IMG/VR virus record: IMGVR_UViG_2802429241_000010
Span: 1 to 52,885 of that record
Direction: 5' to 3' (one strand)
Source of the DNA: a virus
Taxonomy: Duplodnaviria; Heunggongvirae; Uroviricota; Caudoviricetes
Length of the DNA stretch: 52,885 nucleotides
Every line of letters starts with the position of its first letter. Position 1 is the stretch's first letter. Made by a program: the position numbers and the translations under genes. The notes under the pieces were generated by a model. The model was not told where the DNA came from and did no database searches. It saw only the letters and a list, made by a program, of their open reading frames with translations. Below are positions 14,052-16,844 of this stretch, one piece after another.

Positions 14052-14084
14052 AGCACGATCTTGCATACGACGTGCTACGGTTTC
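14052..14084. repeat. Hairpin-forming repeat, copy 2 (between the GIY-YIG gene and the invertase 3' end)
   Basis: agcacgatcttgcatacgacgtgctacggtttc; sits between convergent genes, so may act as a bidirectional terminator. Confidence 0.6.
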
Positions 14085-14637
14085 ATTTATCTCCGACCGG
14101 AAACTTCTTATACAGTGTCGATATACCAACATCATAGATGATCGCCACCTTCTGGCGAGGAACGCCTGATGCAATTAATCGCCCGGCCTGCGCCCATTGT
14201 TCTGGTGTAAGTTTGGGACGACGTCCACCAATTCGTCCCTGTGCGCGAGCAGCTTCCAGTCCAGCTTTTGTTCGTTCAACAATCAGTTCTCGTTCCATTT
14301 CAGCCAGGGCACCCATCACATGAAAGAAAAAACGCCCCATCGGTGTGCTGGTATCAATAGCATCCGTCAGGCTGCGAAAATTAACGCCACGTTCGCGCAA
14401 CTCCTCAACCAGAATGACCAGATGCCGCATACTACGCCCCAGCCGATCCAGCTTCCAGACAACCAGAGTGTCACCTGCCGATAATGTCCTGAGCAGTTTT
14501 TTCAGTCCCGGCCTTTCGGACTTTGTACCGCTTATCTTGTCTTCAAAAATCAGCTCGCATCCTGCACAGTTCAGCGCATTACGTTGTAGATCTGTGTTCT
14601 GGTCATTTGTTGACACACGTACATAGCCAATAAGCAT
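14083..14637 (-). CDS. Serine DNA invertase (Hin/Gin/Pin/Cin family)
   Basis: MLIGYVRVSTNDQ N-terminus with catalytic Ser, C-terminal HTH; RBS GGAG upstream of the ATG at 14637; adjacent to tail-fibre cassettes. Confidence 0.9.
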   Translation of the reverse strand: MLIGYVRVSTNDQNTDLQRNALNCAGCELIFEDKISGTKSERPGLKKLLRTLSAGDTLVVWKLDRLGRSMRHLVILVEELRERGVNFRSLTDAIDTSTPMGRFFFHVMGALAEMERELIVERTKAGLEAARAQGRIGGRRPKLTPEQWAQAGRLIASGVPRQKVAIIYDVGISTLYKKFPVGDK

Positions 14638-14699
14638 GGTAGATCTCCCTGACAAAAGCAGGAATGATGCCATTTGCTCGTTATTTCTGCATTTTCATA

Positions 14700-15065
14700 A
14701 ACGTTGGTTTGGGAGAAGCGGCGAAAAGGGATGTGGGTACAGGAGAAAATCAGATACCGGATATGTCAGCCTGGAAAAGAAATCCGAGTTCTAATCGCTG
14801 GAGAAAATTGCCTGATGGAACCATCATTCAAATGGGAATATCAGCATCAGGGCCATTAGGCTCACCTGTAAATATCACCCTGCCGATATCTTTCAGCAAT
14901 ACCAATTATTGTGTTGTTGCATCGTACGATAATGCACGGTCAGGTGTGTCAACAATGGTTAGTTTTGCAGCATTACCTGTTTCACCATCGCAATTTTCCC
15001 TGATGTCATCTGTGACTGAGCAAGGAATAAATCCTTTTGCTTACTGGATTGCTTTTGGAGATTGA
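14700..15065 (+). CDS. Silent alternative tail-fibre C-terminal cassette
   Basis: In-frame continuation from the crossover site (NVGLGEAAKRD…); no independent start expected. Confidence 0.6.
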   Translation, partial: NVGLGEAAKRDVGTGENQIPDMSAWKRNPSSNRWRKLPDGTIIQMGISASGPLGSPVNITLPISFSNTNYCVVASYDNARSGVSTMVSFAALPVSPSQFSLMSSVTEQGINPFAYWIAFGD

Positions 15066-15068
15066 TAA

Positions 15069-15488
15069 ATGGACAGATACTTCTATTCACAAAAAGAAAA
15101 TGGTTTTTTTACCGATTTAAATAAAGCACCTTCAGATGCTGTTGAGATAACCACGGATGAATGGCTGTCACTACTGGATGGTCAGGATAATGGCATGAAA
15201 ATAGTCAGCAATCAGGAGGGATATCCGGTTTTGACAGAGCAACCACCTTTATCAAAAGAAAACCTTATTGCATTGGCAGAGTTGAAAAAAGGAAAACTTA
15301 TTAATGAAGCCAACGAGCACATGAACAGCAGGCAATGGCCTGGTAAAGCGGCTATTGGTCGTCTGAAAGGTGAGGAACTGGCGCAATATAATTTGTGGCT
15401 GGATTATCTGGACGCACTGGAGCTGGTCGATACTTCCAGTGCGCCAGATATTGAATGGCCTACGCCTCCGGCAGTTCAGGCCAGATGA
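15069..15488 (+). CDS. Tail fibre assembly protein (alternative orientation)
   Basis: 139 aa; conserved Tfa C-terminus (DTSSAPDIEWPTPP). Confidence 0.7.
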   Translation: MDRYFYSQKENGFFTDLNKAPSDAVEITTDEWLSLLDGQDNGMKIVSNQEGYPVLTEQPPLSKENLIALAELKKGKLINEANEHMNSRQWPGKAAIGRLKGEELAQYNLWLDYLDALELVDTSSAPDIEWPTPPAVQAR

Positions 15489-16062
15489 TATCCGGCGCGG
15501 TGCTGGTATCTGTTACCGTCACCGCGTCAATGTAATCCAGCACGGCGTTAAGTCGGGTTGTTTCTGCCTGCGTCAACTTCCGTCCGGCCTGCAATTTCAG
15601 TTGAATCAGACTAATGGAAGCCATTGCAGTATCAATCAGTGACTGACGCTGTGCTTCTGCCGCGTCTACTGCGGCGCTATGCTGTGCCTCGGTATCCGTC
15701 ACCCATTTCTCACCATCCCATTTATCGTATGGCGTTAACGGGGCGATAGTGGTTGTATTATCAGGGTAATCACCCGGAACTGTGATTTCTTTTGATTCTC
15801 CTGTTTCGGTGCTAAAGACGATTTCACCGCGATGGTCTGGCACATATTCCCATGAGTTAAAATCTGCAGATCGGCAGATTGCATAACCAGCTTTGTATGC
15901 GCCTGGGGCATCTAAACAGGAATATGCCGGAATGCCGACACCAATAGCAAGATATTCAGTTGAAGCTGAAATATATTCCCGACTCATGACATCAAAGTTA
16001 TAAACAGTAATTTCTCCTGCCATAGTGGCAATTAATTCACTGTTTAATTCTGCGTTATTCAT
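15460..16062 (-). CDS. Tail fibre assembly protein (expressed orientation)
   Basis: 200 aa; conserved Tfa C-terminus (DTSTAPDIIWPELPEA). Confidence 0.8.
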   Translation of the reverse strand: MNNAELNSELIATMAGEITVYNFDVMSREYISASTEYLAIGVGIPAYSCLDAPGAYKAGYAICRSADFNSWEYVPDHRGEIVFSTETGESKEITVPGDYPDNTTTIAPLTPYDKWDGEKWVTDTEAQHSAAVDAAEAQRQSLIDTAMASISLIQLKLQAGRKLTQAETTRLNAVLDYIDAVTVTDTSTAPDIIWPELPEA

Positions 16063-16844
16063 TATGCAGCCCTCACAATATAGTTAAAAGCGACATTTCG
16101 TGGGCGTGTTTCATTCGCACCTGCAGGTTTAGTCGTTGCCGCAACAACACCACCCTCTGTAATAGCCGGGTTGGGAATTGGGTAATTATCGAAGTCAATG
16201 GCCGGAGACAGGGGCGTGATTTGTTTTAAAATCGTGGTGCCTGTAAAACTTTCCAGAGTCTGGTCGTTAGTTCGTGAAGTCCAGATTCCCCAATAGTGGT
16301 TATGACTGACAATCGCACCGTCCTGAAGCGTTAATAATCCCCTTCCGTTATCCACTCCACGTCCGTCATCCCAGCCACGAATAAACTCACCGCGTAAATC
16401 AGGCAATTTATTTGTCGGGTAAGCCTTTGCCAGTTCCGGGTATTCTTCAGCAGAAAAAGCCGCACCATTGCATTTCAGCCAGCCTGTCGGCGGAGTGGCG
16501 GAAGGCCACGGAACAGGCACACCAACAGGTAATGCAGAGCCTTCTCCCAAACCAAGGTTTTCGAGAGCCGTTTTCACCGTGCCATCCGATTTGATATCGC
16601 CAAACGGATTCTTGCGGCTTAACAGCAGCGCGCGGAGCGCGGTAAGCAGCTGGTCATGCCGCCCCTTCTCCAGGCTGGCACCGGATGCCTCCACAACGCT
16701 GCAAAGCTCCTCCTGCAACATGTCAAAGTAGTCATCATCCAGATCGGTGGCAGGCGTGCCGGTCTGGGGGTTACCACGGGTAAAACCGTTCTTACCCGCG
16801 CCGAACTTATCCTTCTGCGCGGTTTTCGTGTCTATACGATGCAT
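16062..16844 (-). CDS. Tail fibre protein (constant N-terminus fused to variable C-terminus inside the invertible segment)
   Basis: 260 aa; crossover site embedded at codons for ENLGLGE. Confidence 0.8.

Follow-up and report, generated by a model that had tools for sequence, protein, structure and literature searches.

The window, as we call the whole stretch of DNA that was analysed, comprises 52,885 nucleotides (nt) of the IMG/VR virus record IMGVR_UViG_2802429241_000010 (Caudoviricetes) and holds, around positions 14,000 to 17,000, a locus in which a gene for a serine DNA invertase, pin, lies beside a tail-fibre gene, an alternative fibre cassette and a pair of inverted recombination sites. 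The locus belongs to a prophage with integrase, CI-like repressor, terminase, portal, capsid, sheath, tube, tape measure and baseplate genes, alongside genes for lysis and replication. The tail module was complete, and the prophage as a whole appears to be complete as well.

The fibre gene lies in a baseplate operon on the minus strand, in which a Baseplate_J gene (17423-18481) and a Mu Gp48/YmfQ gene (16848-17432) precede it, the latter by 3 nt. In its present orientation the fibre gene (16062-16844, minus strand) encodes 260 amino acids (aa) with a Pfam Phage Tail Collar domain (E = 1.5e-15), and it is split into a constant N-terminal part, Sc (16556-16844), and a variable part, Sv (16062-16553), to which the Collar domain belongs. 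Residues 1-105 were 97% identical to StfP of Escherichia coli K-12, and residues 96-260 were 65% identical to StfE. The assembly protein of this expressed cassette is TfaE-like (15460-16062, minus strand; 200 aa; Pfam Caudo_TAP, E = 1.7e-32), with 86% identity to K-12 TfaE. The alternative cassette is encoded on the plus strand and comprises a second fibre C-terminus, Sv′ (14706-15065; 119 aa; Pfam Gp53-like_C, E = 1.2e-13), which starts at a crossover site, and a second assembly protein (15069-15488; 139 aa; Pfam Caudo_TAP, E = 2.3e-26), which was 56% identical to K-12 TfaP.

A repeat search of the window recovered inverted-repeat arms of 20 nt at 14699-14718 and 16541-16560 that were 95% complementary, and the 15-mer TTGGTTTGGGAGAAG was present in two exact copies on opposite strands (14704-14718, plus; 16541-16555, minus). 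No third copy of TTGGTTTGGGAGAAG was found in the 52.9-kb window with up to two mismatches allowed (chance expectation 0.14), and a scan near the locus with AAACCNNGGTTT returned no additional credible crossover site. A multi-site arrangement of the shufflon or Min-of-p15B type was rejected, as the window holds two sites only, even at two mismatches. Site boundaries were set in the 12-2-12 hix/gix register and checked against gix from the Mu genome record. This placed the pin-proximal 26-bp site at 14692-14717 (TTTTCATAAACG-TT-GGTTTGGGAGAA; central dinucleotide 14704-14705), which also falls upstream of pin, at 55 bp from its ATG, and the fibre-internal 26-bp site at 16542-16567 (TTCTCCCAAACC-AA-GGTTTTCGAGAG; central dinucleotide 16554-16555), which is translated on the minus strand as ...LENLGLGE... 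within the fibre. The two sites are inverted, and each consists of two imperfect 12-bp half-sites flanking an identical, non-palindromic 2-bp core (TT/AA); 18 of the 26 positions were shared with Mu gix in the same register. Measured from core dinucleotide to core dinucleotide, the invertible segment spans 14704-16555, or 1852 bp. A preliminary description of this DNA had already proposed inverted 26-bp sites resembling hix and gix. The resemblance is confirmed by the 12-2-12 alignment with Mu gix; the boxes it drew, at 14694-14719 and 16539-16564, deviate by 2-3 bp and are shifted by 1 bp relative to each other.

The pin gene (14083-14637, minus strand) encodes 184 aa with Pfam Resolvase (E = 9e-52) and HTH_7 domains. 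Specifically, the protein combines the N-terminal resolvase-type catalytic domain, the nucleophilic serine at position 9/10 and the C-terminal helix-turn-helix that characterise small serine recombinases. Identity was 95% to K-12 PinE and about 80% to Mu Gin, whose crystal structures 3UJ3 and 4M6F were matched at E = 1e-93. In the alignment to Gin, the catalytic Ser9 of Pin is wild-type, whereas 3UJ3 has an alanine there, and Met114 is likewise wild-type, whereas both crystallised Gin proteins carry a valine; R7, R42, D64/R65/R68 and H106 are also kept. The residues considered unique to Fis/enhancer-dependent invertases, which in Hin are K47, K/R48, K/R51, Q151, R154 and L155 (PMC3798978), are all retained in Pin as K46, K47, R50, Q150, R153 and L154 (Hin numbering minus 1). 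The domains, the identities to PinE and Gin, and these residues uphold the earlier assignment of an adjacent Din-family (Hin/Gin/Cin/Pin) serine invertase. A longer pin start, at the upstream ATG of the open reading frame (ORF) at 14673, was rejected in favour of 14637 on the basis of homology to Gin and PinE and of the RefSeq annotation of relatives. Near-identical loci already carry the pinE label in RefSeq. PADLOC gave no match for Pin itself.

When the segment was exchanged in silico between the central dinucleotides, the first 97 fibre codons became fused in frame to the gp53-like fragment, and the flipped version encoded a fibre of 214 aa without interruption, with the second assembly gene coming after it. 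In two isolates that carry the flipped orientation, JE86-ST05 and CX07, the expected alternative fibre is annotated in RefSeq as a 216-aa product. The preliminary description had placed the sites in frame within the fibre gene and the alternative cassette and had proposed that inversion swaps the fibre C-terminus together with the assembly protein; the in-silico flip agrees on both counts, the second also with the domains found. Its contrast between an expressed fibre gene and a silent cassette was right as to the arrangement, while the full silence of the cassette has to be qualified, in that an ORF from 14664, discussed below, reads into it.

We compared window positions 14000-17500, in native and in-silico flipped form, with 5,426 complete E. 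coli genomes by megablast, retaining matches of at least 80% query coverage. The native orientation was matched by 37 records and the flipped orientation by 28, and several of these were sister isolates with the locus at the same chromosomal position. These isolates are close relatives of the window's prophage, with 94-97% DNA identity to the window. JE86-ST02 and JE86-ST05 were identical over 9,504 bp apart from an exact reverse-complement block of 1852 bp, and CX15 and CX07 were identical over 9,436 bp apart from an exact reverse-complement block of 1840 bp. In both pairs, the ambiguity of the inversion breakpoints was exactly the 15-bp repeat. Since both orientations occur between sister isolates with breakpoints in the repeat, the switch is active in nature, as seen in close relatives of the window. 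The window sites also match the repeats published as inversion sites of the P segment of the E. coli K-12 prophage e14, given as TTGGTTTGGGAGAAGG and its complement, for which about 30% inverted molecules were reported in wild-type cultures (PMC12529663). In clonal K-12 cultures the two orientations coexist, as determined by sequencing and polymerase chain reaction (PCR) (PMC4272514). A single orientation throughout, or an invertase with a mutated catalytic serine, had been named at the outset as observations that would speak against a working switch; we found both orientations, including between sister isolates, and an intact Ser9.

Taken with the organisation of the locus, these observations lead us to conclude with high confidence that it is a Pin/P-segment inversion switch in an e14/SfV-like, myovirus-tailed and apparently complete prophage, providing two alternative fibre tips. 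The constant N-terminal part of the fibre, approximately 97 residues, would be transcribed with the baseplate genes from the minus strand, its coding sequence ending at the crossover site. Pin dimers would occupy both 26-bp sites and, by homology with Hin and Gin, bring them into synapsis on an enhancer that is bound by Fis and lies in the 5′ part of pin. Both sites would then be cut at the central TT/AA dinucleotide via Ser9, rotated and religated, again by homology, leaving the segment flipped. We infer the dependence on Fis and an enhancer, as well as cleavage at the central dinucleotide, by analogy with these relatives. The present orientation would yield a fibre with the Collar-domain C-terminus followed by the TfaE-like chaperone, and the other orientation a fibre with the gp53-like C-terminus followed by a different chaperone, such that a population of lysogens would be expected to release two types of virion with differing receptor-binding tips.

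Several points weigh against the inversion-switch reading or parts of it. The window itself shows one orientation, and the flips were observed in relatives and not in the window's own strain. PinQ and PinR of the same cell flip the e14 segment in trans (PMC12529663), and because other invertases can act in this way, the observed flips are not by themselves proof that this Pin acted. Host-range switching, which the preliminary description had also proposed, is a prediction drawn from Mu and P1 and from the differing receptor-binding domains. Finally, when pin, gin and pinE were scanned over their first 300 nt with the strict Fis consensus GNNYRWWWWWYRNNC, one shared site was recovered, and the partner expected 48 bp away was not recovered.

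The shared site in pin is a tentative Fis-type candidate at 14493-14507 on the minus strand (GACTGAAAAAACTGC; pin nt 131-145), matching GNNYRWWWWWYRNNC at 13 of 15 positions. It coincides in place with the match in Mu gin (nt 129-143) and falls inside the region where Gin-family enhancers lie. The Gin enhancer is reportedly located in the first 200 nt of the gene (Kahmann 1985). Over its first 200 nt, pin differs from the functional K-12 pinE at three positions only, and for this reason the window's pin almost certainly contains the enhancer that serves e14, whichever it is, to judge from this alignment. The conservation of synonymous codons between pin and gin was 0.54 in codons 21-60, compared with 0.30-0.58 elsewhere, showing no clear excess and being uninformative as to an embedded enhancer.

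A different role for the switch would arise if the pin-facing cassette is not silent. A plus-strand ORF of 133 aa (14664-15065) begins outside the segment, at a distance of 40 nt, and continues across the crossover site into the alternative cassette; in position it is the analogue of K-12 stfE/StfE2, with a putative product. On this alternative, the switch would mainly serve the lysogen, with the ORF, which would extend into whichever cassette faces it, giving rise to a free receptor-binding domain that masks receptors on the cell surface and keeps other phages from adsorbing, and inversion toggling this anti-phage protection. The arrangement is K-12-like, in that a 14-codon lead-in (MMPFARYFCIFINV vs MPFACYFFIFINV) is in frame with the cassette, and the present orientation joins this lead-in to the gp53-like domain, as in StfE2. 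Moreover, StfE2 of K-12 e14 was reported to block adsorption of phage T2 (PMC12529663), and two known defence genes, PD-T4-3 and a PD-T4-6-like kinase, are located directly beyond pin. However, the published StfE2 effect rested largely on over-expression from a plasmid (PMC12529663), the window cassette shares just 38% identity with the C-terminus of K-12 StfP, from which StfE2 is formed, and both differences in the 14-codon lead-in change amino acids. The prospects for expression also appeared poor. Promoter-like sites numbered 6, against 4.8 in shuffled sequences, and none was suited to the 14664 ORF but a weak one inside pin, while the AGGA box abuts the ATG at 0-3 nt, a poor spacing for a Shine-Dalgarno sequence. 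More generally, when 13900-17000 was scanned for promoters and terminators, the counts did not exceed those of the shuffles, and neither pin nor the 14664 ORF could be given a promoter. As the prophage appears complete, the classical virion function suffices to explain the switch. We therefore regard a mainly lysogen-serving switch as rather improbable, and hold it equally doubtful that the ORF at 14664-15065 is expressed in the lysogen as a free, StfE2-like receptor-masking protein. Should it be so, the switch would double as an invertase-controlled defence against superinfection beside PD-T4-3 and the PD-T4-6-like kinase, with a cassette allele differing from the one that has been studied.

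It is very unlikely that the locus is a decayed remnant, in which the repeats and the invertase gene persist while the segment has become fixed in the window's strain. The single orientation in the window would fit such decay, as would the fact that e14 is itself a defective prophage, but the Pin frame is unbroken, none of its catalytic or regulatory residues has been lost, the two sites do not differ from the functional e14 sites, near-identical loci are flipped between sister isolates, and the four cassette genes are all intact. That the two database orientations arose through misassembly at an inverted repeat, with no real recombination, can be given practically no credence, since although assemblers can mis-orient segments flanked by long inverted repeats, a repeat of 15-20 bp is far below any read length and cannot confuse them, in each of two independent clonal pairs the breakpoints lie precisely inside the sites of the recombinase, and inversion at the e14 locus was confirmed by PCR and quantitative PCR (PMC4272514, PMC12529663).

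As an inversion switch, the locus represents a known system of the e14 Pin or Mu Gin type, in an allelic form that is common in E. coli genomes. Invertible tail-fibre segments under the Gin, Cin and Pin invertases have been in the textbooks since the 1980s, and the locus carries little weight as a discovery. Its value lies more in how such regions are read. For annotation, the two fibre genes of these loci are better treated as one gene with two alternative ends, and the truncated ORFs labelled 'gp53-like' or 'phage tail protein' as unexpressed cassettes. For assembly, differences in orientation between otherwise identical isolates are to be expected and are not errors.

Turning to the surroundings, we noted that homology to strain CX15 and to K-12 breaks off at 14053 and 14081, respectively, right after the pin stop codon, and the position thus constitutes a variable cargo slot. 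Elsewhere, the same slot is occupied by mcrA in K-12 e14, by DinI and an integrase in strain CX15, and by gtrABV in SfV. Beyond the invertase gene, the window carries a gene for a GIY-YIG protein (13201-14025, plus strand) with a full-length match to PD-T4-3 (PADLOC E = 2.9e-140). The gene is bracketed by a 26-bp direct repeat (13028-13053 and 14049-14074), whose copies are 92% identical and 1021 bp apart. This repeat is hairpin-like, CG[T/C]AGCACG..CGTG(G)CTACGG, and its right copy coincides with the limit of homology to other prophages; the repeat may mark the edge of a cassette or be a terminator that was duplicated. Next follows a 478-aa Ser/Thr kinase gene (11185-12621, minus strand) that resembles PD-T4-6/mad6. 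Further away, a convergent type II restriction-modification pair encodes a C5 cytosine methyltransferase and an HNH-type restriction endonuclease (5939-7009, plus strand, and 6988-7647, minus strand). Between this pair and the kinase gene, two ORFs of 421 and 205 aa (8105-9370, plus strand; 10211-10828, minus strand) had no Pfam or PADLOC match and, judged by their neighbours, may be uncharacterised defence or cargo genes. Positions 1-4612 of the window encode DUF932, GYF_2 domain, antirestriction and RadC-like JAB proteins, a set of genes that is typical of a CP4-type integrative island and lies outside the prophage. Lastly, a 429-aa protein with DUF6575 and DUF7226 domains (37096-38385, minus strand) is encoded inside the prophage, between its lysis/late and early regions.

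Of the known systems, that of e14 is the closest. PinE was 95%, the fibre N-terminus 97%, YmfQ 97% and TfaE 86% identical to the window counterparts, both 26-bp sites (pinE-proximal and stfP-internal) were identical, outer half-sites included, and the gene order ymfQ, stf, tfa, tfa′, stf′, pin was the same. By these identities and this synteny, the window locus is an orthologue of the invertible P segment of e14. Pin and this segment were reportedly treated by Plasterk and van de Putte in 1985 and by Mehta et al. in 2004. The cassettes, in contrast, are other alleles, with a Collar-type C-terminus 65% identical to StfE, another C-terminus 38% identical to StfP, and a second chaperone 56% identical to TfaP; these alleles are themselves common in E. 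coli genomes. Core to core, the segment measures 1852 bp in the window and 1829 bp in e14. The prophages that carry it differ as well, e14 being a 15-kb defective remnant, whereas the window prophage has head, tail, lysis, replication, repressor and integrase genes, and pin is followed by mcrA in e14 but by PD-T4-3 and the kinase in the window. At the level of sequence, then, only the cassette alleles set the window locus itself apart from that of K-12.

The Gin/G segment of Mu (S-U versus S′-U′) is akin to the window locus in having a constant fibre N-terminus outside and two opposed cassettes inside, each with a fibre C-terminus and a chaperone, as well as an invertase gene just past the far site, an enzyme about 80% identical to Pin, and 12-2-12 sites. 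It differs in that the segment is about 3 kb long, the fibres are much longer, the cassette sequences are unrelated, and the central dinucleotide is TC rather than TT. The Hin/H segment of Salmonella shares the enzyme subclass and the architecture of the sites, with the Fis-contact and helix-B basic residues conserved. However, Hin flips a promoter for flagellin switching and does not exchange coding cassettes.

Two further groups of phages share parts of the module. In P2-like phages with an invertase module, such as Escherichia phage NC_041848, Salmonella phage MET_P1_103_31 and Klebsiella phage KP12, pin and the entire segment resemble those of the window at about 88% DNA identity as far as the outer edge of the site, and the 15-bp repeats are the same (positions 2970-2984 and 4818-4832 of the NC_041848 stretch that was retrieved). 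Unlike in the window, the module belongs to a P2-type tail gene cluster, where it is joined to a much longer constant part in a fibre of 499 aa; the outer half-sites differ and read TTCTCGCATACC. In the Shigella phages SfV, SfI, SfII and SfIV, the baseplate, YmfQ and fibre N-terminus are about 96-97% identical to the window, and a single 27-bp copy of the site is kept within the fibre gene (SfV stretch 3501-3515); however, these phages are without the invertase and the second cassette, and O-antigen gtr cargo comes next. Their homology to the window ends exactly at the crossover site. Because the SfV-type homology ends at the site while the P2-like homology runs to its outer edge, the site is, from these alignments, also a module junction, common to the switchless SfV-like phages and the P2-like phages with the whole switch. 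We also observed that the inner half-site and the core move together with the cassettes, and that the outer half-site goes with its surroundings, the host fibre or the invertase. The role of the site as a module junction fits the long-known mosaicism of tail fibres.

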